64,000 bases of DNA from Candidatus Kerfeldbacteria bacterium (GTDB lineage: Bacteria > Patescibacteriota > Patescibacteriia > SBBC01 > CAIJZX01): NCBI GenBank assembly GCA_016193315.1, contig JACPSJ010000001.1, positions 219,981 through 283,980 on the forward strand, in the 5' to 3' direction. The notes under the pieces are model-generated. The model saw nothing but the letters and a program-made list of their open reading frames with translations. It was not told the DNA's origin and ran no database searches. Both the position numbers and the translations under genes were made by a program. The first letter of the stretch is position 1. Each line of letters starts with the position of its first letter. Shown here one piece after another: positions 26,080-53,756 of this stretch.

Positions 26080-26814
26080 ATGTTCGAAAACGACAAGTCG
26101 AAAGTCCGCCGGCCGGGGGTGGTCGATCGGCTGATCGATTTCCTCTCCGGTTCCGCCCCCGCCGCCTCGCTGGAAGGGCACCGGGCGTATCGGCTAGCGT
26201 TTTTTTTCGGCCTCCTTGGCCTGGGGTTAGGAGCTTGGCTCATCCGGCAAACCATTACGAGTCTTGGTCAGCAGCCTGTACCGTCGGTGACCAATGAGCA
26301 AACGCCGGTGGCCAAGCTGGCCGAGCTCAAAACGAAAGATACGGATGAGGACGGGTTATCCGACTTCGATGAACTCTACGGTAGCAAGACCAGCCCCTAC
26401 CTCCGCGATTCCGACAGCGACGGCGTGGCCGACGGGGACGAGCTGAGGCAAGGAACTGATCCGAACTGTCCCTCCGGAAAAGCGTGTGCCGGCATTGTCG
26501 GCGGGGGTCCAACCACCGACAGCGGCGGCCAACTGACGCCCGAGTTTCTTCGCCAAGCCCTTCGCGATTCCGGGGTGGCGCAGAACACGCTCGAGGGCCT
26601 GTCCGACGATCAATTACTCGGTCTCTACCAACAGGTCGTTCAGGGGGCCACGAACACCAATGCCTTGGCCAGCATCACGCTCGATGATCTCAAGAAACTG
26701 TCAGGCGACGAAGTGCGCCAGCTGCTCCAGGACAGCGGTATCAGTAGCGAGGAGTTGAGTAAACTCGATGACGCGACATTAAAAAAAATCTTTCAGCAAG
26801 CACTCGAGCAGTGA
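26080..26814 (+). CDS. Membrane-anchored protein with TSP3-like acidic Ca-binding repeats; first gene of the giant locus
   Basis: TM anchor AYRLAFFFGLLGLGLGAWLI, then DTDEDGLSDFDELYG...DSDSDGVADGDELRQGTDPNC. Its stop overlaps the next start (GTGA). Confidence 0.45.
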   Translation: MFENDKSKVRRPGVVDRLIDFLSGSAPAASLEGHRAYRLAFFFGLLGLGLGAWLIRQTITSLGQQPVPSVTNEQTPVAKLAELKTKDTDEDGLSDFDELYGSKTSPYLRDSDSDGVADGDELRQGTDPNCPSGKACAGIVGGGPTTDSGGQLTPEFLRQALRDSGVAQNTLEGLSDDQLLGLYQQVVQGATNTNALASITLDDLKKLSGDEVRQLLQDSGISSEELSKLDDATLKKIFQQALEQ

Positions 26815-29800
26815 ACGTCCAACATCCTAACCCGCGCCGCTTTCCGACCAGCCGTTTCCTGGCCGCACTGCTCGCCTTCCTGACGGTGGTGGTGGTGTTC
26901 CGCACCTTCCAGCCACGGCCGGCGGAAGCCATTCTGGGCGTTGGCGACGTATCCGTCACGGTCGGAGATATTCCGCGGATTATCTTCCAATTCGTCGACG
27001 CCGCCCGCAAGCGGGTAGGCGCGATCCTGAAGGTCGCCGGCGACATTGCCTTCAAGAACACGCTGGAGATCTACAATGCCAAGATCGCGCAAGAGATCCT
27101 GACACAAATCAGTACCGCCGGCCCGGGCCAGAAACCGCTGTTCCTGACGAATCCGAAAACTTTTTTCCGTGACGTGGCCAATTCGGCGGCCGGAGATTTC
27201 ATTGACGAATTCACCCGGGGATTGACCGGCGAACGGGGGCCGGGGACGGCCTTCAGCTCCGCCCGCCAGCGCTTCATTATTTCACGGATCTTGCGGATCG
27301 GAGTCGGCAGCCCGGTTGAACAGTGCCGCGATAGTTGTCGGTCCACCTATAGCGTCGGGAACATCGACCTGGCGGGAGTCAAAGAATACTCCGATGAGGA
27401 ATTCCGGCAGCTGACCCAGGCCAGTTTTCGGAATGAGTTTGAATGGCGGATTGTTAATGTCCAGCGGCGGATTGACACGGTGACAAAACCAGCCATCGAC
27501 CATCAGGAGAGCGAAATCGTCTGCCGTGACGTGGCGTTACCAGCCGGACCGCCGCTGCCGGGACAAAACTACCTGCCGTGGCAAATTCAGCTCGGTGCCT
27601 GCGGCGAGGCGGTGCCGCCGCCGGAGTGTACAACGGCTCCGCAAGAATGTTTGAACCGCCAGCAGGAGGCCATCAATACGGAACGAGCCTCGGCCCAACA
27701 GCTGACCAACCAGTGTCTGCGGGATTGTCAGAGTGGATTGGCCGGTCTGGCCTCGGACGCCATCAACCAGGCTACAGCCACCGACATCTTCAACGCCACC
27801 ATCGAGTTAGATACTCGTCAAGCGACTCGCGCCATTACCCAAGAATTGTCGCGCGACAACAGCGATATTGGCAAGACGCTCTACTCTTTTGCTCAGTTGT
27901 ACGATACGGTTCAGGAACAAATCACGGCCGCCAAGACCGAGTTGGAAGCCGGGGCCAAGCCCCGCACGTCGAAAGTCAGCGAGGTGGTGCTGGTGCCGAA
28001 GGAAGCCAACCAACAAAGCCTCTTCACCGCCCTGGTTGGCGGCGACGACGCCAAGAAGATTTACACCGGCACCACGGCCGCCGATATTATCAAGGGCGTG
28101 GCCGCTTTCATTAATAGCCCGCTGTTCAAGGTGCTGACCTTGTATTTTAAGCACCAGTGCGGACTCAACACCGAAGCCTGCCGCGGGCCGTCGCAGCCGA
28201 CCTCGACACTCGGGCAGCTGCTCTTCGGCTCCGGCGGGCCAACCGGCCTGGCCGGGGCCCGGCTGCAATTCTCGACCGTTGGTCAAACCAAGTTCCTGAC
28301 CGGTGACCCCGGCCGGAACGAAGTCGACATCCCCAATGAGTTGGCGTCGGCCGGACTGATTGACGCCCAATTTCGGAACGCGATCGAGGACCGTCTGACG
28401 GTTCAAGAAGCACTGGACAAAGGGACGCTCGACCCGCGGAAGACTTTTGGGTTTGACCGTAACGGCGTTCAGCCGCGCGACGGCTATCCGTTCCGCGCTC
28501 TCCAGTACCTGCGAAAGTACCGCGTCGTCCCGGTCGGCTGGGAACTGGCCGCCAACTTCAGCTTACAATTCGATCCCCGCGACCTCAGTTTCGGTTTTCT
28601 GACTAAGCAGTTCAACCTCTGCGGCCAGGACGAGACTCACCGAGTCTGTACGAATGACCCCAATACGAGCTGTCAGGCGGACGATGACTGCAGCGGCAAC
28701 CGCTGCGGCGCCAGCCCGTACTGCGGCCTGGTTGATCCGAACTGGGTGCTCAAAGCGCCGCAGACGTACTGCCGCCGGCAAGGTGCCGGCGAGGAAATCA
28801 TCACCAAGGAATTCGTCTGCGATGAGAATAATATCCGGTCCATCGACGGAGTAGTCATCAACCCAGCATTCCAAGACGCCGGTCCGGACGGCATTCCCAC
28901 TACCCCTGACGATCAAGACAATAATCCACCCAACTGCGTCAAGGACGAACTCCGGAATGTCCACCCCGACCTCGGTCGTTGGGTCGTCAGCCGAAACACC
29001 AACACCTGCGCCGATACCCAGTCGTGCATCGCTGAGAACGACGACGGCACGTGTATTGCTTTCGGCTATTGCGTCCAGGAACGCCAGCAATTCCGCTTCG
29101 ACGGCACCCAGTGCGACGCCGAGTTCGCCAGCTGCACCACCTATACCGACGATCAAGGACAACCAGCGTCGTACCTGGCCAGCACGCTTGACTTCCGCAA
29201 CTGCAACGCCGACGTGGCCGGCTGCCAGTGGTATTGTCAAAACTACGACGCCGAAGCGCAACGCTGGACCTGCGGCGAGCCGCCCGGCAACGATGATCCC
29301 AGCGTCGTCAATGACATCATTCGTTTCACCAGCAACGTTCAAGCCTGCAACCAAAGCCAGGCCGGCTGTCGGCAATTTGTCCGGACCTCGAACGGATCGA
29401 ACCTGCTGCCCAACGGCGGCTTTGAAATTTTCTCCGGCGCCGAGCTCGACAGCGGGTTGGTAGCCAACTATGACAGTTGGAACAAAATTGGCGGGATCGG
29501 AACGTTTCCGGTTTCGGCCAGCGACCCGGATGTCACATCAAGTAACCGGGCGGCTATCAAGTTGACGGGGGGTGCGGGCGATGAACTTAGCGCGACCATC
29601 GATACCGGCTATGCTCTCTACGAGCGATCGTTTTCGGCCTCCATTCGGGCCCGGGCCGATTCAAGTTGCACCGCCAGCCTGGAAATGGACACCGACGTGG
29701 TCAGCTCGGGACAAGTGGTAACGATCGGCCCGAGCTGGGCGACTCAGGCGTTGTCAATCGTCATCCCAGAGGAGGAGAGGGTTCGTTCGTTTAGCAATGC

Positions 29801-32396
29801 GTTAACATTTACCATCAAGGTCGAAGGCTGCGGCGGCGCCAACCTAGTAGTCGACAGTGCCCAGCTGGAAGAAAGCGGCCTAACCCAATTCAAAGACTAC
29901 GGCCAGATCAACGCCGTCTACCTTAACGGGACGCGGCGCTCATGTACCACCGCCGATGTCGGCTGCGAATCGTACACGCCGCTGGCTGGCGGATCGGCCA
30001 TCACGGCTCAAGTCCGCAACAGCAACCGTTGTACTGAAGACAAGGTTGGTTGCGCGACCTACACGCTTGAACCGCTGCCTGGTCCCATTCCGCGACCGGG
30101 CGGATCGGTCAACATCATCGCGCCAAAAGGCCAGTCCTGCTCCGCCAGCAACGTTGGTTGCGAAGAGTATACTAATCTCGACGAAGTCGCCCGGGGCGGG
30201 GAAGGGAAAGAATACTATCAGTCGGTCAAACAGTGCGTCCGACCTAAATCCGGCGATCCTAGCCAGGCCACCTACTACACTTGGGTCGGCGATGCTGCTC
30301 GTGGCTTTATCCTGCGGAGCCACACGCTCCTGAAATCGAACATCGACGCCAGCCCCTGTACCCACCCCACGGTTGGCGCGCCGCGGGACGAACCGGTTTG
30401 CGACGATGCCGGCCGGGTCGATACCTCGGCTATCTGTAATGCCGATACCTTATCCAGCAATCCAGACTGCGCCGAATTCTACGATTCGTCTTTCAGCGTC
30501 TACTACCGGCTACGCTCGCTAACCGTTTCGGTAACCGACGATTGTCATCCGTATCGGAACAGCGTTGATCAGACCGACGCCGATCCAGGTAACGACGACA
30601 ACATCTACTTCCTGGCGCCCAAGGAAAACGTGGCTTGCCCGGCCACCGCCGCTGGTTGTCGAGCCTATACCGGCAATGCCGGACGGTCGACGAGAACTAT
30701 CTTCAGCGATACCTATGAGAGCGGCACGACCGCCAACTGGGTTGGCGGGCTGCCGGTGACCGAATCAACTAGCCTCGGCGGGCACTCGATGCATATTCCA
30801 TTGCCTGGAGGAGCGCCACGTGCGGCGGCCTACACCGACACCGACGTGCTGCCGGGGAAACTGGCCGACGGCAAGAACTACGTGGTCACCTTCTGGGCGG
30901 CGGCGGCCAACAGCGCCAGCCACCTGGCGACGATCAAAGCCAGTTTCGGCTCCGTTACCGGTAGGTCCTATAACGAAGATCAAATATTCGGCAGCGGGCA
31001 GCTTCGCTGGAATGAGAGTATTACCCCGGCTGGGCCGGAGTGGCAGCGCTACACCCTCGGTCCGCTGCAGCTGATTGGCAACACCGCTCGGCTCGGCATT
31101 ACGGTCACGGGTGGCGAGGCCTACGTTGATAACGTCACCTTGACTGAGATCAACGACAGTCTCTATCTCGTCAGCTCAACCGTGCCGCTCTGTGAGGCGG
31201 CTGATGTTGGTTGCGCCGCCTACCGCGATCGGGCCGGCGCCCGACACTATCTCAAATCCTTCACCCGTCTCTGCGCCGAGCAGGTCGTCGGTTGCGAAGC
31301 GATGGTTGACACCCAAAACAGCAGCACCCCGTTTGCCCAAGTGGTGAAGAACGAATTGACACCGGAGGACGCGGTGGTGACCGCGGTAAATAACCGCGCC
31401 GCCTACTGTCCGGCGGCCACTAAGGGTTGCCAGGCGCTCGGTAAACCGACCTACACGAACGACCGAGTCATCACCGGCTACCAGACGGTCTACCTCAAGA
31501 ACGACCCCGATCAGCATGCCCGCGACTTGTGTCTGAACGAAGAGTTATTCTGCCGGGCCTATACTACCGCCAGCGGATCGGCCGCCTTCTTCAAAGACCC
31601 AGCCCACCAAACCTGCGAGTTTCGATCGAACGCCAGCGATGTCGGCGGCCAGTGGTACGTCAGCGGCACCAACATCTTTTGCCCGACGATTACCCCGCCA
31701 TTGTCCGGTCGCCCGCTCGGCCCATCGTGCAGCCCCACCTGTGAGACTACCCCTGACTCGCTCCGGGCTGGCAAAGCCTGCGTTCGGGACGTCGACTGTC
31801 CGAAGGATGGCGGCGGGAATGTCCGCTGTCTAGGCGATGCCAGCAAAGTCGGCAAGATCAAAGATAGCGGCGGTAACTTCGTCTTCGGGCAGTGTGCCAG
31901 TGACACCGACTGCGATCCGGTCACTGGTAACAAATGCCGCTACTTGGCGGGCCTCTGTCCGGACGAACAAAACGGCTGCAATGAGTATCGCGATCCGACC
32001 GATCCGGCTGGCTGTCGGAGCGAGTGTCCGTTGATTCAGGTCGGTGGCAGCCCGCTCTACGTTGACGCCACGTGCGCGACCACCCGCTGCTCCTACCAAT
32101 GTCTCGGCGGGACGTGCGAAGGAGGTCCGGATGACGGGCTGGCTTGCGGTAGCGACGCGGAGTGTAATGTTCATTCCGGCAACTGTCAGGCCAGTGAACA
32201 GTGTGGCCCGGGCGGGCAGTGTCTCGGCAGCAACGGCCTGACCACCACCGGTATCCCCGGCTGCCGCCCCTACTATTACCTCCGGCAGACGGTGGAGACC
32301 AATGCCGTTGATTGCAACGGCCAAGTCAACCTGGAAACTCGCTGCCGACCATTCAATGACACGTCGAAACCGATCCTTAACGTGCGTGGTGGATAA
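26811..32396 (+). CDS. Giant secreted cysteine-rich repeat protein (1861 aa)
   Basis: N-terminal signal-anchor; recurring VGC[AE]xYT/GCxAY motif (ADVGCESYTPLAG, DKVGCATYTLEP, SNVGCEEYTNLDE, AAGCRAYTGNAG, ADVGCAAYRDRAG, VVGCEAMVDTQ, TKGCQALGKPTY); very Cys-rich C-terminal quarter. Confidence 0.7.
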   Translation: MNVQHPNPRRFPTSRFLAALLAFLTVVVVFRTFQPRPAEAILGVGDVSVTVGDIPRIIFQFVDAARKRVGAILKVAGDIAFKNTLEIYNAKIAQEILTQISTAGPGQKPLFLTNPKTFFRDVANSAAGDFIDEFTRGLTGERGPGTAFSSARQRFIISRILRIGVGSPVEQCRDSCRSTYSVGNIDLAGVKEYSDEEFRQLTQASFRNEFEWRIVNVQRRIDTVTKPAIDHQESEIVCRDVALPAGPPLPGQNYLPWQIQLGACGEAVPPPECTTAPQECLNRQQEAINTERASAQQLTNQCLRDCQSGLAGLASDAINQATATDIFNATIELDTRQATRAITQELSRDNSDIGKTLYSFAQLYDTVQEQITAAKTELEAGAKPRTSKVSEVVLVPKEANQQSLFTALVGGDDAKKIYTGTTAADIIKGVAAFINSPLFKVLTLYFKHQCGLNTEACRGPSQPTSTLGQLLFGSGGPTGLAGARLQFSTVGQTKFLTGDPGRNEVDIPNELASAGLIDAQFRNAIEDRLTVQEALDKGTLDPRKTFGFDRNGVQPRDGYPFRALQYLRKYRVVPVGWELAANFSLQFDPRDLSFGFLTKQFNLCGQDETHRVCTNDPNTSCQADDDCSGNRCGASPYCGLVDPNWVLKAPQTYCRRQGAGEEIITKEFVCDENNIRSIDGVVINPAFQDAGPDGIPTTPDDQDNNPPNCVKDELRNVHPDLGRWVVSRNTNTCADTQSCIAENDDGTCIAFGYCVQERQQFRFDGTQCDAEFASCTTYTDDQGQPASYLASTLDFRNCNADVAGCQWYCQNYDAEAQRWTCGEPPGNDDPSVVNDIIRFTSNVQACNQSQAGCRQFVRTSNGSNLLPNGGFEIFSGAELDSGLVANYDSWNKIGGIGTFPVSASDPDVTSSNRAAIKLTGGAGDELSATIDTGYALYERSFSASIRARADSSCTASLEMDTDVVSSGQVVTIGPSWATQALSIVIPEEERVRSFSNALTFTIKVEGCGGANLVVDSAQLEESGLTQFKDYGQINAVYLNGTRRSCTTADVGCESYTPLAGGSAITAQVRNSNRCTEDKVGCATYTLEPLPGPIPRPGGSVNIIAPKGQSCSASNVGCEEYTNLDEVARGGEGKEYYQSVKQCVRPKSGDPSQATYYTWVGDAARGFILRSHTLLKSNIDASPCTHPTVGAPRDEPVCDDAGRVDTSAICNADTLSSNPDCAEFYDSSFSVYYRLRSLTVSVTDDCHPYRNSVDQTDADPGNDDNIYFLAPKENVACPATAAGCRAYTGNAGRSTRTIFSDTYESGTTANWVGGLPVTESTSLGGHSMHIPLPGGAPRAAAYTDTDVLPGKLADGKNYVVTFWAAAANSASHLATIKASFGSVTGRSYNEDQIFGSGQLRWNESITPAGPEWQRYTLGPLQLIGNTARLGITVTGGEAYVDNVTLTEINDSLYLVSSTVPLCEAADVGCAAYRDRAGARHYLKSFTRLCAEQVVGCEAMVDTQNSSTPFAQVVKNELTPEDAVVTAVNNRAAYCPAATKGCQALGKPTYTNDRVITGYQTVYLKNDPDQHARDLCLNEELFCRAYTTASGSAAFFKDPAHQTCEFRSNASDVGGQWYVSGTNIFCPTITPPLSGRPLGPSCSPTCETTPDSLRAGKACVRDVDCPKDGGGNVRCLGDASKVGKIKDSGGNFVFGQCASDTDCDPVTGNKCRYLAGLCPDEQNGCNEYRDPTDPAGCRSECPLIQVGGSPLYVDATCATTRCSYQCLGGTCEGGPDDGLACGSDAECNVHSGNCQASEQCGPGGQCLGSNGLTTTGIPGCRPYYYLRQTVETNAVDCNGQVNLETRCRPFNDTSKPILNVRGG

Positions 32397-32398: not shown

Positions 32399-35300
32399 AT
32401 GTCATCTCATCGCCAATCAATCATTACTTCTGCCTCCACATGGTCACTCGTCCTCGGCCTGGCGACGTGGCTGGTGGCGGTTATGGCCCCGAAACCGGTC
32501 TCCGGCCAAGCGGCCTGCAGATCGAACCCGGATTGTGCCGCGACCGACCAAGCCTGCGTCTCTCGCTTCTGTGAGGACAATTTCAACTTGACCTTTTCTC
32601 CGACCACGGTCACGGCCAGCGGTTATTCTCAAGGCGTCGGATCGGATTCAATCGGCAACTTCATCCTTTACCATTGTCTCGGCGGTAAGTCCATTTGCAG
32701 TGCCCAACCGACGACGAACACTGCCTTTTGGACGAAACGGACCGGCGCCGACAGCTATTCAGTGACGCGTTCGAACCTCCGCCCGAGCCGAACTTACAGT
32801 ACGACCTACATTGGCGAAGTGAACACTGTGCGTACCGACTACGAAGCCCGACAGGTGACCACCCTGCCTGGCTACCAACCGACGGCCACGGTCAGCGGCA
32901 TTACCGAAAACAGCGCTACAGTTTCGTGGACGACCAGATTCCTTAGTGACAGCACGATTTGGTATGGGCTGACGGAACCAGACGTCAGCGTTGAACAAAC
33001 GGTTGTGTCCCCCGAAGTGTTCACTGACGTCGACGCCTTGTCGAGCGGTGAAGCCTGGGCCGTCACAAGTTCCGGTCGGGCATTCCGTCGCAACACCAGC
33101 GGGGCCTGGTCCGAGGCTCTCACCGGCGAAGGATATTTCGATTCGGTCAGCGTGTTTGATGCCCAACACATTTGGTTGGGCGCCAACGCCGGAAAGGTGC
33201 TCTACACGACGGATGGCGGCTCGAGCTGGGTCCGCACCACCTTTGGTGCCCCGTCCGACGATATTTTTGACCTCTACGCCCCGACCGCGACGACCGCCTG
33301 GGCAGTCAGCCGGAACAAGAAAATTAGCCTGCTCGATCAGGCGGTTGATCCCAATAATTGGCAATTGAAATACACCGCCACTTTTACCATGAGCGATATT
33401 TATTCATTGGACAACAAGGAAATCTGGGCGGTCGGTTCGGGCGGGAGAATAGTCACCAGTCGAGACGGCGGCGCGACGTGGTCGGAAACGTTGGTCACCA
33501 GTTCGGGCGCCTCGCTGGGCACGATCACCACCGTTGATGGTCGGACGCTGTGGGTGGGTGGCAGCACCGGCAGTATTTACCGGTCTAACGACAGTGGCGT
33601 GTCGTGGTCCCCGATCGCTACCGGGTCGGTTACGGCGATCGATGAACTAACCCCCATCAATACGCTCGCCATCTGGTTTACACAATCCGACCGTCTCGGA
33701 TATTACGACGCGACCGGCGCCCCCAGTTTCACCTTCTACACCCAAGCCCGGGCAGATCTCGGTAGCCCGCTGACTGAGTTGGGCCAGATTAACGGGGGGC
33801 AAATGTTCCTCGCCAGCGACAACGGGAGGCTAGGTTTGTTCCGACAAGCAGGCTCCGTCCATACGGATCTGCCGCTGGTCACCAACCACTCCCACACCTT
33901 TCCCCCCGGCAGTCTCGTCCCCGGGACAGACTACTTTTTCTCGGTCATCTCTAGCGACGGCAACATCAGTGCCGGGGCGTTCGGGACATTCCGGACACTC
34001 GAGCCCGATCCGGTTCCGCCGGACATTAGTTTTGCCCCCGACCCACCCGCCTATACGAACGTCAGCCCGCTGACCGTCAGCGGCACGGCGACCGATAATA
34101 TCAGCCTGCAGTCGGTCACGGTGACGAACAATGGCGCGCCCCAGGTAGTGACCACCGCTCCGCCGCTGCCCGGACCCGCTTCGACGTCCTGGTCTTCGAC
34201 TAAGGGGCTGAACGTCGGCAGCAATCCGTTCAAGGCCACGGCCACCGACAGTTCAGGCAACACCAAGACAGTCACGGCCACCGTGTTCTATGATCCCAAT
34301 CCACCGGTCGTGGCCATCACCAACCCGTCGGATGGGGCGGTCGTGGCGACCAGCACCATTACTATCGACGGCACGGCCAATGATGACGACTGGGTCGACA
34401 GTATGGAATACGTGCTCAACGGGGGCCCGCGGAAACCGCTGACCATTACGCCTGGGGCGGGCGTCAATTGGTCTGACAATGCCGGCCCGCTAACGCCGGG
34501 GGCGAACACGCTAACCGTGTACGCCAAAGATCGGGCCGGCAACGAAGGCTCACAGACGGTGAACTTCGAGTATCGCGAACCAACCTTCACCCTCAGCGCC
34601 GATCCGATTGCGGCGGCTGGTAATGCCGGCGACGTCTTCACCTTTTCCATCACCGCCACCTCGGTTGACGGCTTTGCCGATGGAGTCACCTTCTCAGTCA
34701 GCGGCGAGCCGGCCGGCAGCAGCGTCACTTTCGCGCCTAATCCGCTCTTGGTGCCGGCTGGCGGGTCGGACAGCTCGACTATGACCATGACCACCAACCC
34801 GGCTACGACGGGCACTTTCGACATCACCATCACTGGCACGAGCGGGCCGAAAACGGCTACCACTTCGGTGAGCCTCAAACTCAGAACTCCTCCCGACTTC
34901 ACGCTGTCAGCCATTCCGGTTATCCAAAACATCGTCGCCGGAAATCCAACCAGTTACCAGATCACGGCCAATTCGAACGTGTCTTTCAATGACACCGTCA
35001 CCTTCAGCGTCAGCGGCTTACCGGCTCTGGCCACGAGTGGGTTCAGTCCGGGCTCACTGACGTTGCCGCCGAGCAGCAGCGGTACCACCGACCTGACGGT
35101 GACGACACAACCGGCGACGCCGGACGGCAGCTACACACTGACGATCACCGGCACCAGTCCCGGCCTAACCCGGACGGTCAATGTAACGCTGAATATCAGC
35201 GCGCCGCCCGACTTTAGCCTGACTGTAGTGCCGGCCGGGCAGACTGTAACCGCTGGCGGCTCGACCTCCTACAACGGCACCGTCAAAGCGCTCAACGGTT

Positions 35301-44040: not shown

Positions 44041-44369
44041 GGATTGCGGTCAGCCGTCCGACCCAGCGGCCAAGCGTGGTTCTGCGTCGCGCCGGTTATA
44101 GCGAGTTCCACGACCGTCAGGCCAATCAGGTGTCGTACGTCCGCCGATTAGGAACGTATTACTACCCGCGTTTCCACCTGTACGTCGTTGATAGCGGGCA
44201 GGATCTGCAACTGAATCTTCACCTTGATCAGAAGCAGCCATCCTACGGCGTCGGTCACCAGCACAGTGGGGAGTATGACGGTTGGCAAATCGAGGCCGAG
44301 GCTGAACGGTTAAAACAATTTTTTCAACCCCTCCCGGATCAAAAGCACCCGACTACAGTACCCACTTGA
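44037..44369 (+). CDS. Hypothetical small protein
   Basis: ATGA overlap with the upstream gene. Confidence 0.3.
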   Translation: MRIAVSRPTQRPSVVLRRAGYSEFHDRQANQVSYVRRLGTYYYPRFHLYVVDSGQDLQLNLHLDQKQPSYGVGHQHSGEYDGWQIEAEAERLKQFFQPLPDQKHPTTVPT

Positions 44370-46140: not shown

Positions 46141-46626
46141 ATGGCCCAGCAATTCATCGTTCCCCAGTTCATCGAGGTCGAGGACAAAATCATTGGTCCG
46201 ATTACCGTCCGCCAATTCGTTATTATCTTAGCCGGCACGGCGCTGATCGTTGGCTCGTATCAGCTGTTGGTCAAACTGGCCAATCAAAGCGGCGCATTTT
46301 TGTTCTCCGCTTTCGGCATTCTGGTGGCCATGGTGGCCTTCGCCTTCGTCAAAGTCAACGGCCGTCCGTTCCACACCTTTCTCCTCAACGTCCTCCAGCA
46401 TCTCAAGAATCCCCGGATGCGCCTGTGGAACAACCAAATCGGCGAACGGCTCCAGTATCGCCGGGAACCTCCGCCGCCGTCGCCGATTCCGACTAAGCGA
46501 CCGCTCAGCAGCACCAAGTTGGCTCAACTGGCTCTACTGGTTGATACCGGCGGCGCTTACCACGAAGATGAAGAACTCCTCTACTGGGGGCAGGCGCTGC
46601 CAAATCAGGTGAGCCGGCGCCGATAA
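46141..46626 (+). CDS. Small two-TM membrane protein, VirB3/PrgI-like by position and topology
   Basis: Two hydrophobic helices (VRQFVIILAGTALIVGSYQLL and FLFSAFGILVAMVAFAFV), located just upstream of VirB4. Confidence 0.4.
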   Translation: MAQQFIVPQFIEVEDKIIGPITVRQFVIILAGTALIVGSYQLLVKLANQSGAFLFSAFGILVAMVAFAFVKVNGRPFHTFLLNVLQHLKNPRMRLWNNQIGERLQYRREPPPPSPIPTKRPLSSTKLAQLALLVDTGGAYHEDEELLYWGQALPNQVSRRR

Positions 46627-46636: not shown

Positions 46637-47365
46637 TTGTCCATGGCCATAACCAAAACAAAGGAGAAGACCCGGCGGGCTAAGGCCGCCATCCCCACCC
46701 AGCAATACCTAGATATTCTGGAGATTCGTGACGATACCGTCGTCCTGCGCGACGGGACATTGCGCGCGGTGCTCCTCGTCTCGTCGATCAACTTCTCGCT
46801 CAAGTCCGAAGAGGAGCAAAACGCCGTCATCCAGGCCTACACCGAGTTCCTCAATACCATTGACTTCCCACTCCAAATCGTTATCCAATCGCGCCGACTC
46901 GACATCGATCACTACCTGGCTGAGCTCGAGCAGCTGGAAAAGCAGCAAACCAATGAGCTCCTACAGTTGCAAACCCGGGACTACCGCCAGTTCGTGGCCG
47001 AACTGGTACAGATTGCCGACATCATGACCAAACGCTTTTATGTGGTCGTCCCGTATTCACCAAAAGTCGACCGCCCGGCTCGTTTCTTCCGCCGCCTCTT
47101 CGACGTCTTCTCTCCGACGGCCACGATCCACCTCAAACAGAAACAATTCGAGACCTTCCGCCAGGAACTATTCAAGCGCGTCGACAACACCACCAACGCG
47201 CTCGACGCGGCCGGTTTGAAGTCGATCGTGGTCGACACCCAAAGTTTGATTGAGTTGTACTACAATTCATACAATCCCGAAACCGCTCGCCAACAGAAAC
47301 TCCAGGCCGTCGATAAAGTGTCGCTCGAGGACGTTTCGAGTATTAAGGAGGACGAACGTCCGTAA
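46637..47365 (+). CDS. Hypothetical protein resembling a VirB4/TrbE N-terminal (CagE_TrbE_VirB-like) domain
   Basis: The pattern IPTQQYLDILEIRDDTVVLRDGTLRAVLLVSSINFSLKSEEEQNAVIQAYTEFLNTIDFPLQIVIQS resembles the N-terminal entry region of VirB4-family ATPases. Confidence 0.3.
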   Translation: MSMAITKTKEKTRRAKAAIPTQQYLDILEIRDDTVVLRDGTLRAVLLVSSINFSLKSEEEQNAVIQAYTEFLNTIDFPLQIVIQSRRLDIDHYLAELEQLEKQQTNELLQLQTRDYRQFVAELVQIADIMTKRFYVVVPYSPKVDRPARFFRRLFDVFSPTATIHLKQKQFETFRQELFKRVDNTTNALDAAGLKSIVVDTQSLIELYYNSYNPETARQQKLQAVDKVSLEDVSSIKEDERP

Positions 47366-47429: not shown

Positions 47430-49355
47430 ATGCCAGACATCAATCTCTCGAGCCCGAAAGTTTTTCGCCCCGAACCGGTGGCGTCGGTCCGCGGCGAGCA
47501 ACCGCGGCCGTCCGACGAGCGGGCGCTGATTGAGGCCGAACGGATCTATCGCCGCGGCGTAGTCACTGTCCGCGACCTGATTGCGCCGGCGGCCCTGAAA
47601 GTCGATCCGACGGCCCTGATCCTCAATGGCAAGTACGTCCGCACGCTGTTCGTCATCACCTACCCGCGATACATCTCGGTCGGCTGGTTTGCCCCGATCA
47701 TCAATTTCAACGCCCCGCTCGACGTCGCCATGTTCTTCTATCCCATCCAGTCCGACATCATCCTCAAGCAGTTGAAGAACAAAGTCGGCGCCCTCGAAGC
47801 CCAGCTGTCGGCCGATATCCAAAAGGGCGCGCCCCGTGATCCGATGCGTGAAACCGCGCTGCGCGATATTGAGAAGCTGCGGGACGACTTGACGCAAGGG
47901 ACCGAGAAATTCTTCCAGTTTGCCCTCTACGTGACGCTCTACGCCGACAAGCTCGAACAGCTGAACGAAATGACCAGCAAGATCGAGTCACATTTCGGCT
48001 CGCGCCTGGTCTATTCCAAGCGGGCCTTCTTTCAAACCGAGCAGGGTTTCACCTCGACCTTGCCGATCGGCCTCGACCAGCTCCAAGTGACGTTCAACAT
48101 GAATTCGTCGCCGATCGCCTCCAGCTTCCCGTTCGTCTCGGCCGACTTGTCGAGCGATAGCGGCGTGCTGTACGGCATTAATCGGCACAATAATTCGCTC
48201 ATCCTGTTCGACCGCTTCTCGCTCCAGAACGCTAACTATACGGTTTTCGCCAGCGCCGGCGCTGGCAAGTCATACGCGGTGAAATTGGAGATTATCCGCA
48301 GCATGATGTTCGGTACCGAGATCATCGTCATCGACCCGGAACACGAATACAAGTATTTGTCCGACGCGGTCGGCGGCACCTACATCAACGTCTCGCTCAA
48401 CTCGGAGAGCAAGATCAACCCCTTTGACTTGCCGAAGCCGATCAGCGGCGAGGAAACGACGTCGGACATCATCCGCTCGGCGGTCATCACGCTCAAGTCG
48501 GTGTTCCGCCTGATGCTCGGCGATCTGACCCACGAAGAGGATTCGATCCTCGATCGGGCCCTGCTCGAGACGTACGCCAAGAAAGACATCACTCCGGACG
48601 CCGATCTGCAGAACGTCGAAGTGCCGGTGATGTCCGACTTCGAAGATGTTCTCGGCGGCATGACTGGGGCCGAACGCATGGCTGAACGGCTGAAAAAATA
48701 CACCCAGGGCACGTTCGCCGGCCTGTTCAACAGCCCGACGAACATCGAGCTCAATAATCAGCTGGTCGTCTTCTCGGTCCGCGATCTGGAAGACGAGCTG
48801 CGGCCGATCGGCATCTCCATCATCATCAGCTACATCTGGAACGTTGCCCGCTCGAGCCTGAAGAAGCGGTTGCTGATTATTGACGAGGCCTGGTGGCTAA
48901 TGCAACACGAAGATTCGGCCAAGTTCATCTACGGCCTGGTCAAGCGCTCGCGAAAATACTACCTCGGAGTGACGACTATTACCCAGGACGTCAACGACTT
49001 CTTGCTCTCACCATACGGCCAAGCGATCATCAATAACTCGGCCTTGACGCTACTGATGAAGCAGTCGCCGGCGGCCATCGACATTGTCAGCAAGACCTTT
49101 CTCCTGACCCAGCAGGAACGTTATTTGCTGCTCGAAGCCGGCGTGGGCGAAGGGATTTTCTTCGCCGGCCCGAAGCACGCCGCCATCAAGGTCGTCGCCT
49201 CCTACGGCGAACACCAAATCGTGACCACCAATCCGGCCGAGCTGCTGGAGATTGAACGAGCCAAGAAGGAGTTCGAGCAATCAGTCGCCTCTGGCACCGC
49301 CACCAATGTCGGCTCGGCCATCGCCGACGTCCGTGAGTTAGAAACAGTGACCTAA
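47430..49355 (+). CDS. VirB4/TrbE/TraC-family type IV secretion ATPase
   Basis: Gram-positive-type VirB4 N-terminal motif KYVRTLFVITYPRYISVGWFAPIINF, Walker A SAGAGKSY and Walker B LLIIDEAWWLM (DEAW). Confidence 0.85.
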   Translation: MPDINLSSPKVFRPEPVASVRGEQPRPSDERALIEAERIYRRGVVTVRDLIAPAALKVDPTALILNGKYVRTLFVITYPRYISVGWFAPIINFNAPLDVAMFFYPIQSDIILKQLKNKVGALEAQLSADIQKGAPRDPMRETALRDIEKLRDDLTQGTEKFFQFALYVTLYADKLEQLNEMTSKIESHFGSRLVYSKRAFFQTEQGFTSTLPIGLDQLQVTFNMNSSPIASSFPFVSADLSSDSGVLYGINRHNNSLILFDRFSLQNANYTVFASAGAGKSYAVKLEIIRSMMFGTEIIVIDPEHEYKYLSDAVGGTYINVSLNSESKINPFDLPKPISGEETTSDIIRSAVITLKSVFRLMLGDLTHEEDSILDRALLETYAKKDITPDADLQNVEVPVMSDFEDVLGGMTGAERMAERLKKYTQGTFAGLFNSPTNIELNNQLVVFSVRDLEDELRPIGISIIISYIWNVARSSLKKRLLIIDEAWWLMQHEDSAKFIYGLVKRSRKYYLGVTTITQDVNDFLLSPYGQAIINNSALTLLMKQSPAAIDIVSKTFLLTQQERYLLLEAGVGEGIFFAGPKHAAIKVVASYGEHQIVTTNPAELLEIERAKKEFEQSVASGTATNVGSAIADVRELETVT

Positions 49356-49366
49356 CATACATCCCT

Positions 49367-49936
49367 ATGCCCCGTCGACTGCTCATCATCTTGATCGCCT
49401 TGGCGGCCCTGATCATCCCGGTGCTGATCGTCTTGATTGCGGTCGATCGCAGCCCGCAGCTCCAAAATACGGTCCTCAAGTTGTCGAACACCAACCAGGC
49501 AGCCAGTAATACCAATGCCCCGGCGGCGAATGGCAACACCAACGCGGCCACGCCCGAAACCGCCGAAGCCACCGCCATCCGTTTCGTGGCCCGGAACTTC
49601 ACTGAAACGTACGGCAGCGGCACGAACCAGAACGATTACGTCCACCTAACGGCCGCGAAATCATGGGGGACAAAAAGTTTCAACGATTTTCTCGATCGCT
49701 CGGCCGCCCAGCAGCGTTTGACCACCGCCACGCAGCCGTTCCACGGGATCGTCACCAAAGCGCTAGTCTTGACCATCAGCCAACAGTCCTCCCAAACCGC
49801 TTCGTTGACCGTCAGCACCCAGCGGAAGGAAACGATCGATCAAAAGACCGAAGTCTACTACCAAGATTTGTATCTTGATCTAGTTAAGGAGGGTGATGAT
49901 TGGAAGGTAAACGCCGCCTCGTGGTCTCCCCGTTAG
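49367..49936 (+). CDS. Bitopic protein with an N-terminal TM and NTF2-like periplasmic domain, VirB8-like (tentative)
   Basis: TM LLIILIALAALIIPVLIVLIAV, an Asn/Ala-rich linker, and a roughly 120-aa globular domain ending WKVNAASWSP. Confidence 0.3.
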   Translation: MPRRLLIILIALAALIIPVLIVLIAVDRSPQLQNTVLKLSNTNQAASNTNAPAANGNTNAATPETAEATAIRFVARNFTETYGSGTNQNDYVHLTAAKSWGTKSFNDFLDRSAAQQRLTTATQPFHGIVTKALVLTISQQSSQTASLTVSTQRKETIDQKTEVYYQDLYLDLVKEGDDWKVNAASWSPR

Positions 49937-49948
49937 ACTATTCGGACC

Positions 49949-50494
49949 ATGGCCATCGCTGAACAAGAATACCTGGAGGACCCCGAAGATCAGCGCCAAG
50001 CTGAACGTGCCCTTGAACAGCAGCGTTTGTCCGCGCAACGACAGGAACGGGTCAGCCAAGCCCAACCCCGACGTCAGGCGGTTCCGAGCCAGGCTCGAGC
50101 CGCGGCCGAAGCAGCCGAAGGGGCGGCTGAGTTAGCCACGCGGCAGGCCAGACTACGGGCCTGGCAACTGTGGCAGGAGGGGGCGGAAGATGCGGCCATC
50201 GCCTTTGAGGATTTCATGCTCTTCACCGGTCCCTGGGCGACTGGGCTCTATGCCTTCCGGCTCGTTTTCGGCACCCTGCTTCACGTTCCGGGAGTGCCCG
50301 GCTATTCCTGGGCCGAAGGCATCTACCGGACGCCGAAGATTCTGTGGATTATTCTTGTCACGACGGCCATCTACAGCGCTTTGTTCCTGGTGGCCTACTT
50401 CATTTTCCACCCAACTGAAATCATCGTTTTTGGCGTCAACACAGCGTCCGGGTTTTTCTTTGACGTCATCAAGTATTTTAGTCTCGGCACATGA
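49949..50494 (+). CDS. Membrane protein with a charged coiled-coil N-terminus and two C-terminal TM helices
   Basis: QRQ/ER-rich N-terminus; TM segments IILVTTAIYSALFLVAYFIF. Confidence 0.35.
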   Translation: MAIAEQEYLEDPEDQRQAERALEQQRLSAQRQERVSQAQPRRQAVPSQARAAAEAAEGAAELATRQARLRAWQLWQEGAEDAAIAFEDFMLFTGPWATGLYAFRLVFGTLLHVPGVPGYSWAEGIYRTPKILWIILVTTAIYSALFLVAYFIFHPTEIIVFGVNTASGFFFDVIKYFSLGT

Positions 50495-51573
50495 AACTGC
50501 GGTTTCTTATTGTAATGCTGGCCATCGTGGCCGCCCTGTCCGGCCCGGTGATCGCGCAATCGAGCGATACCTCGACGAGCAAGCCGATCGAATTCACGCC
50601 GGAAGTGGAATTGCCGGGCATATTCAGCGGCAAGCAAACCGTCGATCGGAATTTTATCGGCACCTATCTGCGGGCGATTTACGTCTATTTCATCTGGGCG
50701 GTCGGCGCGATGGCCACGGTGATGATCGTCTACGGCGGGATCAAGTGGGTGGCCGCGGCGGGCAACCCCGGCCGCATCCAAGACGCCCGCGACGTCATTA
50801 ACAACGCCATCATCGGCATTATTATTGCCTTAACCTCGGTTGTCCTGCTCAACCTCATCAGCCCGCGGTTTACGATTTTCAGCCTGCCGGATTTGCAGCC
50901 GGTCGAGGCCAAACCTTTTCTCGGGAAGTATAATGCCGCTTACGACTGCTACGAGGAGATCGCTTGTCCCAAGAACTATACTCAAACCCTCGGCGGCCAG
51001 TGTGGATCAGGTGGAGTCTGGGCACATGTCAACCCCGGTCAAATTCCTTGTGGTACCAGGAATGGTGTCTATGCCATTTGCTGCCGGAGGAACGACGGCT
51101 CCGAATGCCGCGGCTATACTTCAGTCAATGGGCGGCAAACATACAGTGGGGAATGCTTCAACGTGACCTCAACTCCGTCTTACACCATCGCCTGCCAAGA
51201 CAGTACTCCGTGCGGACAGGTGAATGGGCGTGATTCGTGTCGGGGCATCTATTGCGGCGCCGACCAAGTCTGCTACCTCAAAGCTCAAACGAGCGGAGTC
51301 TGTATCAACCCTGGCGCTCCTGGAGCCAGCACACGGTATACCTTCACTGGGCTTGAGTGCGGCTCGGGCACAGGTACCATGTTCTTCACCAACGGCATTG
51401 ACTGTGGGCGGCACGCCTCGGGCGAGTTCGAAGGCAGCCCGATCACTGTTTGGGGCACCAAGTCCAGTTGTCCAGCTGGGCAATACTGTAAGGTGCAGCC
51501 GCCGGCCAAGGGTGCAGGCAGTGAGTGTGTGGTTGTTCAGGGAACCGTTTGCTCTCCACTCAATGTTCTTTAA
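50491..51573 (+). CDS. Pilin-like (VirB2/TrbC-like topology) module fused to a roughly 230-aa cysteine-rich extracellular domain
   Basis: Signal peptide, then two hydrophobic helices (YLRAIYVYFIWAVGAMATVMIVYGGIKWVAAAGNPGRIQDARDVINNAIIGIIIALTSVVLLNLISPR), then more than 25 Cys. ATGA overlap with the upstream gene. Confidence 0.5.
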   Translation: MKLRFLIVMLAIVAALSGPVIAQSSDTSTSKPIEFTPEVELPGIFSGKQTVDRNFIGTYLRAIYVYFIWAVGAMATVMIVYGGIKWVAAAGNPGRIQDARDVINNAIIGIIIALTSVVLLNLISPRFTIFSLPDLQPVEAKPFLGKYNAAYDCYEEIACPKNYTQTLGGQCGSGGVWAHVNPGQIPCGTRNGVYAICCRRNDGSECRGYTSVNGRQTYSGECFNVTSTPSYTIACQDSTPCGQVNGRDSCRGIYCGADQVCYLKAQTSGVCINPGAPGASTRYTFTGLECGSGTGTMFFTNGIDCGRHASGEFEGSPITVWGTKSSCPAGQYCKVQPPAKGAGSECVVVQGTVCSPLNVL

Positions 51574-51582
51574 GACTCGGTT

Positions 51583-52827
51583 ATGACCCCCACCCTCCGC
51601 CGCATACTCCTGATCGCCGCTTTCGTCCTCGTGACCCTGGCGTTCTTCTACGTCATTTACCTCGTGTTCTTCAAGCCGACGCCGATTGTGCCGGTCAACA
51701 ATGGAGTGGGGAACGTCAACGGCTTGCCGACGGTTGGCAACGGCAACGTCAATCGGGTCGGCTTGCCGAACGCTAATGCCCTGCCAATCGTCAATGCCGT
51801 ACCCCCTGGCCAGCAGCCTTCCAACGTGGCTGAAGGCGGGCTGACCATCACCGACACGGTCGTGCCCGGGGCGTCGAGCGATCTGACCGTCGGCGGCAAA
51901 GGCTTGCGGTTCTACGACCGCGACCGCGGGCAGTTTTACGAACTCAGTCCGGACGGCACGACCAAGACGCTCTTGACGGACGACGTCTATCGCAGCGTCA
52001 GCGATATCGATTGGTCGCCCAACGGGCAACAAGCCATCCTGTCCTTTCCCGATAACTCAAAGGTGCTCTATGACTTCGAAGCCAAAAAGCAAACCACCCT
52101 GCCTCGTGAACTCAACGATTTCTTCTTCTCACCGCAATCGGACCAGATCGTCTCCAAGTTTTTGAACCCGACCAACGCCGACGATCAGTGGCTGCTGGTC
52201 AGTCGACCGGACGGGTCGCAGTCGGAAACGGTCGAGCACCTGGGGGAAAACGCCAGCCGCGTGACGACCGCCTGGTCGCCGAATAACCAAATCATCGCCA
52301 CCTACCGAAGGTCGACGACCGGAGAGCTATCGGAAATCATTTTTTTGGGCGCCAAGGGCGAGAATTTCCGTTCCGCCACCATCGAGGGCAAAGGGTTCAC
52401 GCCGCTCTGGTCACCGGATGGTCGCCGCCTGCTGTACAGTGCCTACAGCCCGAATACGAATGACAATCCCCACCTCTACATCATGGACGGTTCGCCGGAC
52501 AGTCTGGGCACAAACCTGGTCGATCTTGGCCTCGATACCACCGCTGACAAATGCGCCTTCTCGCAAAGCGCCTACACGATCTACTGCGCCGTGCCGTATT
52601 ACTTGAACGCCGGTTCCGGGCCGCAGCCGGAGCTGTCGGCCGGGGTGCCCGACAACATTTACCGTGTTGATCTGCTCAGCGGCTCAGCCGAAATTATTGC
52701 TCGGCCGGTGGATCGGAACGGCAACCAGCGCTTCAGCGCCGCGAACCTGCGATTGTCTCCCCGAGAAGATCTGCTGTATTTCGTTGACGCCGCGACCGGA
52801 ACGATTCAGAAAATTCAACTCCGCTAG
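51583..52827 (+). CDS. N-terminally anchored TolB-like (PD40/WD40-type) beta-propeller protein
   Basis: TM ILLIAAFVLVTLAFFYVIYLVFF and repeated WSP[ND]G motifs (WSPNGQQAILSF, WSPNNQIIATY, WSPDGRRLLYSA). Confidence 0.5.
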   Translation: MTPTLRRILLIAAFVLVTLAFFYVIYLVFFKPTPIVPVNNGVGNVNGLPTVGNGNVNRVGLPNANALPIVNAVPPGQQPSNVAEGGLTITDTVVPGASSDLTVGGKGLRFYDRDRGQFYELSPDGTTKTLLTDDVYRSVSDIDWSPNGQQAILSFPDNSKVLYDFEAKKQTTLPRELNDFFFSPQSDQIVSKFLNPTNADDQWLLVSRPDGSQSETVEHLGENASRVTTAWSPNNQIIATYRRSTTGELSEIIFLGAKGENFRSATIEGKGFTPLWSPDGRRLLYSAYSPNTNDNPHLYIMDGSPDSLGTNLVDLGLDTTADKCAFSQSAYTIYCAVPYYLNAGSGPQPELSAGVPDNIYRVDLLSGSAEIIARPVDRNGNQRFSAANLRLSPREDLLYFVDAATGTIQKIQLR

Positions 52828-52829
52828 CG

Positions 52830-53756
52830 ATGGGTCGCTGGCTGATCGTCCTGTGGCTGGCCGGTTGGGCGACCGGGGTGACCGCTCAGTCCGACATACC
52901 GCTCGTTCCCGAACCAAAAGCCATTGATTTCAAGCCGGAGGTGCCGCTGCCGACATTTGCCGGCGGACCGATCAGCGCCGCCACCTTTGCCGAGTACATC
53001 CGCGCGGTGTTTGTGGCTTTTGTCTGGATCGTCGGTATTCTAGCCGTGGTGATGGTCGTCTACGGCGGGGTCAAGTGGGTGGCCGCCGCCGGCAATCCCG
53101 GGCGGATCACCGACGCGCGGGAAACAGTCAACAGCGCCATCATCGGGCTGATCATTGCCTTGGTATCAGTCGTGCTGCTCAACCTGATCAGCCCCCGCCT
53201 GACCCAATTTCCCGGTCTGACCCTGTTGTCGGTCAAAGGAACGCCCTTAGAATTTGACAACGTCGTCGGCATCCACGGCGAAGGCCAAGCTGGGCAGGCG
53301 TGCAACTTGCATACCGACAAATCCTGCCAGCTATTCAATGTGACGATGAGCTGGCCGGTTAGTAACGTCACGGAGCGCGGGATTAGCAGCCCGATCGGGC
53401 CCCGGCGGGTCGTGGGCGCAGCCAGCGCCTCGTCCTGCCACCCGGGCACCGATTTTAAGACCGATCGTCAAACCGGCAAAGAAGTTCGAGCCATGCACAG
53501 CGGAACGATTCGTCTCGATCCCAGGCGGCCGTGTAATGAAGCGGCACTGTTTGTGGACGGCGATGGGTTCTCCACGCGCTACGTTCACATCTCCAGTGTG
53601 GCGGTGCGGGAAGGTCAAAAGGTCCGCCCGGGTGATCTAATCGGTTACAGTGGCGGCGACCCCAAAGTGGCCGGCAACTGCAGTTCCGCGCCGCACCTGC
53701 ACGTCGAGCTCTACATTCTCAACCGGCTGGCTGATGTCGCGGCCTGTATTGACTAG
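52830..53756 (+). CDS. Pilin-like module, paralogous to 50491-51573, fused to an M23 (LytM) peptidase domain
   Basis: N-module about 80% identical to the paralog (VYGGVKWVAAAGNPGRITDARETVNSAIIGLIIALVSVVLLNLISPR). M23 motifs CHPGTDFKTD (HxxxD) and SAPHLHVELY (HxH). Confidence 0.6.
   Translation: MGRWLIVLWLAGWATGVTAQSDIPLVPEPKAIDFKPEVPLPTFAGGPISAATFAEYIRAVFVAFVWIVGILAVVMVVYGGVKWVAAAGNPGRITDARETVNSAIIGLIIALVSVVLLNLISPRLTQFPGLTLLSVKGTPLEFDNVVGIHGEGQAGQACNLHTDKSCQLFNVTMSWPVSNVTERGISSPIGPRRVVGAASASSCHPGTDFKTDRQTGKEVRAMHSGTIRLDPRRPCNEAALFVDGDGFSTRYVHISSVAVREGQKVRPGDLIGYSGGDPKVAGNCSSAPHLHVELYILNRLADVAACID

Follow-up and report, generated by a model that had tools for sequence, protein, structure and literature searches.

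Type IV secretion systems (T4SS) of the Patescibacteria have recently been catalogued from 2,474 virB4 genes (Quinonero-Coronel et al. 2025, PMC12102498). That survey derives these systems from the conjugation systems of monoderm bacteria and lists as their contents TrsD (the commonest component), PrgI, VirB6, VirB2-like pilins, and M23-containing VirB1-like proteins. As described there, VirB8 homologues are nearly confined to ABY1, whose loci lie near recG, comF, and ksgA; relaxases were found in no more than 103 Patescibacteria genomes; many genomes encode VirD4 homologues, mostly far from virB4; and adhesins, PrgB among them, went undetected. In the saccharibacterium Southlakia epibionticum, epibiotic growth depends on the T4SS (SEML1_0006-0019) and its pilins, which are essential, and also on essential glycan-binding adhesins whose genes lie apart from those of the T4SS (Wang et al. 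2023, PMC10633639). By published account, no other T4SS had earlier been shown to be indispensable to its own carrier, and the Patescibacteria systems are mechanistically obscure, host contact included. Here we analyze a locus of this kind in a 64,000-nucleotide stretch of a Candidatus Kerfeldbacteria genome (contig JACPSJ010000001.1 of assembly GCA_016193315.1, positions 219,981 to 283,980; called the window below). Sixteen genes, g1 to g16, occupy positions 26080 to 53756 of the window (Table 1), and we consider it probable that they form a nonmobile, chromosomal T4SS of the ABY1 type together with a conserved giant surface module, a Sec-exported adhesin acting where the epibiont meets its host.

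Two further groups of described proteins bear on the comparison. The T4SS of Gram-positive bacteria rely on adhesins, and PrgB of pCF10 is encoded in the same operon (PMC12857230). Large cysteine-rich extracellular proteins are known from the candidate phyla radiation (CPR), among them those of Peribacteria (PMC4736985) and the giant membrane proteins of Vampirococcus (PMC8080830). The giants of our locus share with these CPR proteins their size, a signal or anchor segment, a high cysteine content, and a proposed role in attachment, a likeness of description, with no homology to g2 or g4 seen; the CPR proteins are not linked to a T4SS, unlike g2 and g4.

The secretion machinery of the locus is already known, because its inventory matches that of PMC12102498 and the Southlakia system (PMC10633639), and we regard the locus as almost certainly a Patescibacteria T4SS. 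In common with those systems, it has VirB4 with a separate TrsD, PrgI/VirB3, VirB6, PF18895 pilins, an M23 hydrolase, and VirB8, has no relaxase or type IV coupling protein (T4CP) nearby, and lies on the chromosome near ksgA, recG, and comF. An earlier interpretation made from the letters alone (the sequence-only reading) had seen a minimal T4SS/pilus-like apparatus here; the apparatus is not new but is the widespread one already described. From gene content and taxonomy, we infer that it belongs to the Patescibacteria clade derived from MPF-FATA (MPF, mating-pair formation). Southlakia has an array of six VirB2-like pilins, whereas this locus has two pilin genes, each fused to extra domains. 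Neither of the two Patescibacteria T4SS papers describes a giant cysteine-rich protein with carbohydrate-binding modules (CBM) or its TSP3-like partner, both of which are present in this locus.

The sequence-only reading had counted three separate, cysteine-rich giants, g2, g3, and g4. Most relatives encode a single protein of 2,500 to 3,200 amino acids (aa) that is collinear with g2 (residues ~16 to 1856) and then with g4 (~320 to 1308), such that g2 aligns with the N-terminal ~1,700 to 2,050 aa of the single giants and g4 with their C-terminal third. Because of this collinearity, and because the three-gene form occurs in six loci only, the alignments indicate that g2 and g4 are one ancestral giant after fission and that g3 is a lineage-specific inserted gene. 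Homologues of g3 were found only in those six close loci (L004, L006, L007, L008, L036, and L073), and the slot between the giant's halves varies, holding a beta-helix protein in L003 and L008 and an 834-aa protein in L010. We also considered g2 and g4 as paralogues and rejected this; BLASTP gave one weak match at the edge of the CBM (E = 0.004). For annotation, the three giants are therefore one gene-family event, a fission plus an insertion, and not three independent adhesins. The description as cysteine-rich holds for g2 (81 Cys, 4.4%) and g4 (49 Cys, 3.7%), but not for g3 (18 Cys, 1.3%). Across the locus, the nine consecutive proteins g5 to g13 contain no cysteine in 3,286 aa, whereas g2, g4, and g14 contain 3.7 to 5.6%, a very marked bias and the partition expected if the former are cytoplasmic or membrane proteins and the latter are oxidized outside the cell.

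Several features of the giant point to a surface protein. A helical N-terminal region in g2 is accompanied by cysteine-rich repeats with 11 GCxxY-type motifs and two CBM_4_9-like beta-sandwich regions; homologues 46 to 55% identical to g2 pass the PF02018 CBM_4_9 cutoff of 25.9 bits at the equivalent position (P0123, 26.3 bits; P0136, 35.2 bits), and the fused giants score 39 to 50 bits and also carry dockerin modules. An AlphaFold2 (AF2) model of g2 residues 1 to 720 had no fold match in the PDB. For AF2 modeling in this analysis, a shallow alignment of 10 sequences was used. In g4, the fn3 domains are followed by a conserved cysteine-rich region that includes a CRLYP...GYCLE.DP...WWPVD block. 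A phmmer search with this C-terminal region against 1.84 billion cluster representatives returned 703 relatives at E ≤ 1e-3, in both stand-alone (1,300 to 2,000 aa) and fused (2,400 to 3,600 aa) forms. We treat the giant as a Patescibacteria-specific family; where matches to it carry a source name, all labels are of Patescibacteria type, most matches being unnamed metagenome proteins. NCBIfam offered no useful names for g2 or for g4 to g8.

The small protein g1, immediately upstream of the giant, is a candidate membrane anchor or partner for it. The sequence-only reading had called g1 a TSP3-repeat anchor protein; a transmembrane (TM)-like segment at aa 37 and TSP3-like repeats are indeed present, but the TSP3_bac score of 22.2 bits is under the Pfam cutoff of 25. 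A g1 homologue stands immediately 5' of the giant in 23 of the comparison loci introduced below, and also precedes it, with a faint TSP3_bac match, on three contigs with distant giants (L084, L085, and L087); on a fourth (L086), a 280-aa protein with no Pfam match occupies the g1 position. Each of g1 to g4 has one N-terminal hydrophobic segment. None ends in an LPxTG motif, the sole LPxSG-like match being internal (g4 aa 545), and Pfam found no adhesin domain in any of the four. The defining features of PrgB or antigen I/II are absent from them, and the likeness to those adhesins lies in the proposed role only.

The gene following the giant, g5 (HYY50_01375), encodes a protein with ~10 TM-like segments in aa 14 to 350 and then a hydrophilic C-terminal extension of ~600 aa. 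Although g5 has no direct Pfam match, its full-length homologues (E ≤ 1e-180; P0005, P0032, and P0066) reach PF04610 TrbL/VirB6 at 28 to 29 bits (cutoff, 25.9) over the equivalent TM region, and a TrbL_3 match occurs in the relative L087, so that transitive homology makes g5 a member of the VirB6/TrbL family. It fits the term "extended VirB6" as used in PMC12857230. A polytopic core with a large hydrophilic C-terminal extension is shared with RvhB6 of the Rickettsiales and with MPF-FA VirB6 proteins (700 to 900 aa), but at 967 aa (830 to 2,080 aa in its relatives) g5 has an extension with no detectable similarity to either and no Pfam match.

For the synteny comparison, one genome per species was scanned with a VirB6-like alignment, which gave more than 530 positive stretches, and the best 80 loci were analyzed by phmmer. 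Because these 80 were chosen as the most VirB6-similar, the figures that follow apply to ABY1-type lineages only. At least 9 kb of upstream sequence was visible in 58 species loci, and both flanks were informative in 45. Four contigs with distant giants (L084 to L087) were inspected in the reverse direction. Relatives of g5 that carry names are labeled Patescibacteria, Kerfeld-, Uhr-, Falkow-, Magasanik-, Veblen-, or Buchananbacteria, and we take the last six to be placed by GTDB in class ABY1. Many related metagenome-assembled genome records (L004 to L083) are titled "uncultured Gammaproteobacteria bacterium" despite patescibacterial gene content and homologues, which looks like a systematic mislabel.

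In 50 of the 58 species loci, a homologue of g2/g4 precedes the VirB6-like gene in the same orientation, mostly at a distance of a few to tens of nucleotides (nt); the gap is under 300 nt in 22 of them. Median gaps are 17 nt between g1 and the giant, 22 nt between the giant and VirB6, and 1 nt between g4 and g5. Among the 45 loci, 31 have the giant together with the PrgI/TrsD/VirB4 core, 7 have only the giant within reach, 6 have only the core, and 1 has neither. The sequence-only reading had tied the giants to the VirB4 cluster, a claim that would fail if the two were never linked in relatives; because the giant adjoins VirB6 in 50 of 58 loci, and 31 of 45 have the core as well, this claim of linkage stands. 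From the other direction, two of the four distant-giant contigs show KsgA, the TSP3 protein, the giant, VirB6, PrgI, TrsD, and VirB4 in order. On L086, the giant is followed by a 1,060-aa protein that is probably VirB6-like (by size and position only), a ~445-aa gene, and three PEP-utilizers genes; these tandem ~490-aa PEP-utilizers (PF00391) proteins, at 23684-29078 of that contig, stand in place of PrgI/TrsD/VirB4. A similar run of ~440- to 550-aa open reading frames (ORFs) follows the VirB6-like gene in L012, L015, L016, L026, and L029. The most distant giant (2,212 aa, L084) keeps the order KsgA, TSP3 protein, giant at 9165-16639.

These data make us lean toward the giant working with the T4SS. 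The shared strand, the tight spacing, and the 4-nt overlap with virB6 in the window favor such coupling, as does the persistence of the giant/VirB6 pair where genes further downstream differ; by analogy, monoderm T4SS need adhesins and an epibiont needs a T4SS plus glycan-binding adhesins. Several points weigh on the other side. Six of the 45 loci have a T4SS core with no giant within 10 kb, and the giant of L084 has no VirB6 or other T4SS gene within 10 kb downstream, where NDK, radical SAM, and ABC genes lie instead, so that L084 is a natural case of a giant uncoupled from a T4SS. The label CBM reaches g2 through homologues and sequence motifs, g2 itself having no Pfam match at E ≤ 0.01. In addition, the order LysM-M23, LeuRS (leucyl-tRNA synthetase), MFS, KsgA, g1, giant ... 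ComF, RecG is kept in these lineages, and KsgA beside g1 is equally conserved. Because the whole neighborhood is syntenic, adjacency is weaker evidence of function, and the genes could have stayed together through inheritance of their order, with no coupling of function.

The last point leads to a rival explanation in which the giants are independent surface proteins (adhesins, envelope or S-layer-like proteins, or glycan-harvesting proteins) and their adjacency to the T4SS is frozen ABY1 gene order. The conservation of flanking housekeeping genes across distant relatives speaks for it, as do the six core-only loci, the uncoupled giant of L084, the general occurrence of large, T4SS-unrelated cysteine-rich extracellular proteins in CPR (PMC4736985, PMC8080830), and the distant location of the essential Southlakia adhesin genes. 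Frozen order accounts less well for a giant that, in 50 of 58 species, stands beside VirB6 in the same orientation and at operon-like spacing even where the genes of the VirB6-VirB4 interval differ, for a pair that persists where ~490-aa tandem genes replace the core (PEP-utilizers, L086), or for the g4/g5 overlap of 4 nt. KsgA, moreover, is set off from g1 by a 168-nt spacer that holds the best promoter-like site. We therefore rate this coincidental synteny as unlikely, although it ranks ahead of the DNA transfer and substrate explanations taken up below.

Under the favored reading, in which the giant is an adhesin serving the T4SS, g1 to g4 would be exported by Sec, and the one hydrophobic segment at each N terminus would keep them in the membrane. 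With disulfides lending stiffness, they would project CBM_4_9-type, immunoglobulin (Ig)/fn3, and propeller domains that bind host-cell glycans, and this binding would hold the epibiont on the host where a VirB4-powered VirB6/VirB8/VirB3 translocon acts. TrsD, a pilin-based conduit, and a pilin-tethered M23 wall hydrolase would act at the same contact site, and the cargo passed between cells would be proteins or other macromolecules, not DNA in conjugation. In role, the giant would correspond to PrgB-type adhesins, which Gram-positive conjugative T4SS use instead of pili; pCF10-type adhesins bind polymers of the partner cell, and we propose the same functional logic for the giants. Systems of the pCF10 type share with this locus the monoderm VirB6, VirB3, VirB4, and VirB8-like proteins, a wall hydrolase, and large surface proteins. 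In the pCF10 operon, PrgA, PrgB, and PrgC precede PrgH to PrgL. Unlike pCF10, this locus has pilins, lacks a relaxase and T4CP, and is chromosomal and not mobile. The giants, in contrast to PrgB, have no LPxTG motif or polymer-adhesin (PAD) domain, are two to three times larger, cysteine-rich, and N-terminally anchored, and are unrelated in sequence.

A more tentative possibility, doubtful in our view, is that the giant and g1 are an integral extracellular part of the T4SS that docks on the extended VirB6 and forms its wall-spanning, host-contacting end. If true, this would be a new outer or contact module in the role played elsewhere by the outer-membrane core complex or by PrgB-type adhesins, and host specificity would be determined by the variable insert, here g3 and elsewhere its equivalents. 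The giants might instead be substrates or effectors of the T4SS and neither structural nor adhesive partners, given that effector genes often adjoin their secretion system and that the locus shows nothing else that could be a substrate. This is the least likely of the rivals and highly improbable, because the N termini of g1 to g4 are of Sec type, each with the hydrophobic signal or anchor typical of Sec export. Proteins with so many cysteines are expected to fold oxidatively, outside the cell; a T4SS is not known to pass a multidomain protein of 2,500 to 3,200 aa; and the family shows conservation and vertical inheritance, not the variability of effectors.

The possibility that the locus transfers DNA has to be weighed against its gene content and flanks. 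Upstream lie a LysM-M23 gene, LeuRS, APH, Sua5, MFS, and KsgA, and downstream lie RecG, three tRNAs, a ComF-like phosphoribosyltransferase, and ClpC; the LysM-M23 gene keeps its upstream position in L084 and L086. Neither a relaxase nor a VirD4-type protein or T4CP was found among gene-like ORFs of at least 150 aa outside the locus in the 64-kb window, in agreement with the sequence-only reading, and no oriT-associated or integrase gene lies in or adjoining the locus. The marks of a conjugative element (relaxase plus coupling protein, mobile borders) are thus lacking among the ORFs scanned, the flanks being LeuRS, KsgA, RecG, tRNAs, and ClpC. We rejected a mobile-element origin because these flanks are housekeeping genes and the synteny is vertical. 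A tyrosine recombinase gene (Phage_integrase plus SAM-like N domains) at 3218-4207 on the minus strand, 22 kb upstream and beside a patatin-like phospholipase gene, is probably a Xer-type housekeeping enzyme, with no link to the T4SS locus seen. M23 peptidases occur at both sides of the region, LysM-M23 at 15986-17485 on the minus strand and the pilin-M23 fusion g16 at its end.

A machine for conjugation-like export of DNA, or for DNA uptake coupled to the nearby competence and recombination genes, with its T4CP and relaxase encoded elsewhere and the giants as mating-pair adhesins, would fit the descent of these T4SS from monoderm conjugation systems and the many VirD4 homologues usually far from virB4 (PMC12102498), as well as the use of PrgB-type adhesins in conjugation and the comF-like gene and recG just downstream, as in other ABY1 loci. 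With VirD4 mostly so far from virB4, little can be concluded from a 64-kb window that lacks a coupling protein. We nevertheless consider DNA transfer very unlikely. Relaxase, T4CP, oriT-associated, and integrase genes are absent from the locus and its borders, and relaxases are as rare in Patescibacteria as the survey indicates. The Southlakia T4SS is essential, but comEC and a distant t4cp homologue are not, and the present locus sits, vertically conserved, within housekeeping genes. The sequence-only reading had preferred a surface, attachment, or secretion organelle to conjugation; the nonconjugative role agrees with PMC12102498 and PMC10633639, although the argument from a missing T4CP was weak.

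A nonexhaustive literature search found no account, for Patescibacteria, ABY1, or Kerfeldbacteria, of a giant linked to a T4SS. The T4SS machinery, the CPR cysteine-rich surface proteins, and adhesin genes in Gram-positive T4SS operons are already known; what appears to be unreported is the tight, class-wide grouping of a TSP3-like protein, a CBM/dockerin giant, and an extended VirB6, together with the giant's history of fission plus insertion. The suggestion in the sequence-only reading that coupling of giant adhesins to VirB4/VirB6 is an undescribed architecture is accordingly too broad, since adhesins share an operon with such genes in Gram-positive bacteria (PrgB, PMC12857230), and holds for the Patescibacteria literature searched. 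A putatively glycan-binding, disulfide-rich giant beside the channel gene in most related ABY1 species is a concrete candidate for the host-contact part, and host range may be determined by the hypervariable slot that separates the giant's halves. We see in this a testable lead on host contact by an essential secretion system, not a new class of machine.

Table 1. Features of the T4SS locus and of the genes downstream of it (window coordinates)
Feature	Length (aa)	Coordinates	Strand	Description
Candidate operon promoter		25908..25936	+	sigma70-like, TTGACG-17-TATAGT with extended TG; 10/12 matches, consensus match only
g1	244	26080..26814	+	N-terminal TM; Asp-rich TSP3-like Ca-binding repeats; helical C-terminal repeats
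g2	1861	26811..32396	+	N-terminal half of conserved giant; TM/signal anchor
g3	1366	32399..36499	+	insert between giant's halves; signal/TM, BNR/Ycf48-type propeller, Big_7/Ig-like, fn3-like
g4	1310	36501..40433	+	C-terminal half of giant; own signal/TM, two fn3 domains (aa 1-~320)
g5	967	40430..43333	+	extended VirB6/TrbL-like polytopic membrane protein
g6	231	43345..44040	+	no TM, no Cys, no family match; closer relatives only
g7	110	44037..44369	+	small soluble protein, no family; close relatives only; not the VirB3-like gene
g8	564	44400..46094	+	16% Pro, no TM, no Cys
g9	161	46141..46626	+	PrgI family (VirB3 equivalent), two TM; PF12666 43.9 bits (cutoff 27)
g10	242	46637..47365	+	TrsD/TraC-like; VirB4 N-terminal domain homologue as its own gene
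g11	641	47430..49355	+	VirB4-type ATPase; P-loop_TraG 94.1 bits, AAA_10 41 bits
g12	189	49367..49936	+	bitopic VirB8-like; TM helix, Asn-rich linker, NTF2-like domain
g13	181	49949..50494	+	membrane protein; charged N-terminal half, hydrophobic C-terminal half; no family
g14	360	50491..51573	+	signal peptide, VirB2-like T4SS_pilin, then 230-aa extracellular domain with 20 Cys
g15	414	51583..52827	+	N-terminally anchored PD40/WD40-like beta-propeller; PD40 25.7 bits
g16	308	52830..53756	+	VirB2-like pilin plus M23 metallopeptidase; T4SS_pilin 42.1 bits, Peptidase_M23 56.3 bits
recG		53920-56112		downstream of locus
comF-like		59792-60430		downstream of locus

From the ORF listing and direct inspection, the 16 genes are successive plus-strand ORFs with spacing of -4 to +64 nt, a compact array already evident to the sequence-only reading. 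That reading had spoken of five start/stop overlaps, although it listed four itself; four junctions overlap by 4 nt (GTGA at 26811; ATGA at 40430, 44037, and 50491), and three others have spacers of 1 to 2 nt (32399, 36501, and 52830). The top sigma70-like site of the region lies ~145 nt 5' of g1, inside the ksgA-g1 spacer, and terminator-like hairpins in a consensus scan of the region were as frequent as expected by chance. The suggestion of a single coexpressed unit gains from the tight packing, the position of the promoter-like site, and the absence of terminators above chance; on these signals, g1 to g16 are compatible with one transcription unit, which is not proof of one.

Downstream of g5, the VirB-like assignments of the sequence-only reading proved real, with VirB4 in g11, the PrgI/VirB3 equivalent in g9 rather than g7, VirB6 in g5 through its homologues, and the VirB8 fold in g12. 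The proline-rich protein that it noted is g8, a member of the conserved T4SS block found in 42 of 45 loci, always just 5' of PrgI with a median gap of 3 nt. The VirB4 ATPase is present but is effectively two genes, the TrsD-like g10 and g11; a TrsD-like protein encoded separately is a hallmark of the Patescibacteria clade. A weak TraC_F_IV match (8e-4) covers the N-terminal part of the profile in g10, homologues at the same position in relatives carry PF26593 TraC-like, and an ORF of this type (220 to 280 aa) is present in 41 of 45 loci, the spacing to VirB4 having a median of 10.5 nt (46 loci). We considered whether the pair is a frameshifted VirB4 and rejected this because the same split recurs, the 242-aa plus 641-aa arrangement being found in 41 to 46 relatives and matching published TrsD. 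Both Walker motifs are intact in g11, motif A as ASAGAGKS (aa 274) and motif B as LLIIDE (aa 481).

The VirB8 assignment of g12 is moderately secure. Its AF2 model (mean pLDDT, 68; domain, ~80) was best matched in Foldseek by CagV (3.6e-5), with R388 VirB8, TcpC (3ub1), PrgL (7aed), and DotI also among the best matches (4e-5 to 3e-3). Because generic NTF2 enzymes and other NTF2 proteins match the model too, g12 is VirB8-like by fold plus context, which is not proof; at the sequence level, a profile search of the PDB found nothing, and none of 39 family members had a VirB8 Pfam match. The gene is present in 38 of 45 loci, and g13 is recognizable in 3 of 45.

Both pilin-module fusions reported by the sequence-only reading were recovered above the PF18895 cutoff of 26.6 bits, g14 at 34.6 and g16 at 42.1, and their pilin modules are 53% identical. 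The M23 motifs HxxxD (HPGTD at aa 204) and HxH (HLH at aa 289) are intact in g16, making it a probable cell-wall hydrolase in place of VirB1. Between the two, the propeller protein g15 had been called TolB-like; a PD40 propeller is present, but with a TIGR02800 score of 26.6 bits (cutoff, 343) g15 does not qualify as an orthologue of TolB, and no tol/pal genes were found. In L003, a 416-aa beta-propeller protein with faint Pfam matches likewise follows a pilin gene.

Two other genes in the window have unusual structures. Polynucleotide phosphorylase appears split into two overlapping plus-strand ORFs in different frames, 7882-9510 (RNase_PH twice plus a PNPase domain) and 9395-10015 (KH plus S1), whereas L084 encodes it as one protein of 741 aa; the arrangement in the window might reflect a frameshift or misassembly, or the split might be real. 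The LeuRS gene, at 17501-21421 on the plus strand, encodes 1,306 aa, with Ham1 (ITPase-like, aa 265 to 444) and NUDIX (aa 615 to 726) domains inserted around the editing domain, and the GC content falls to 0.48 to 0.50 over 18 to 22 kb. In relatives, LeuRS is plain, at 765 and 816 aa, or carries an alpha/beta-hydrolase insert, at 1,046 aa, so that domain insertions in this enzyme vary among ABY1 lineages.

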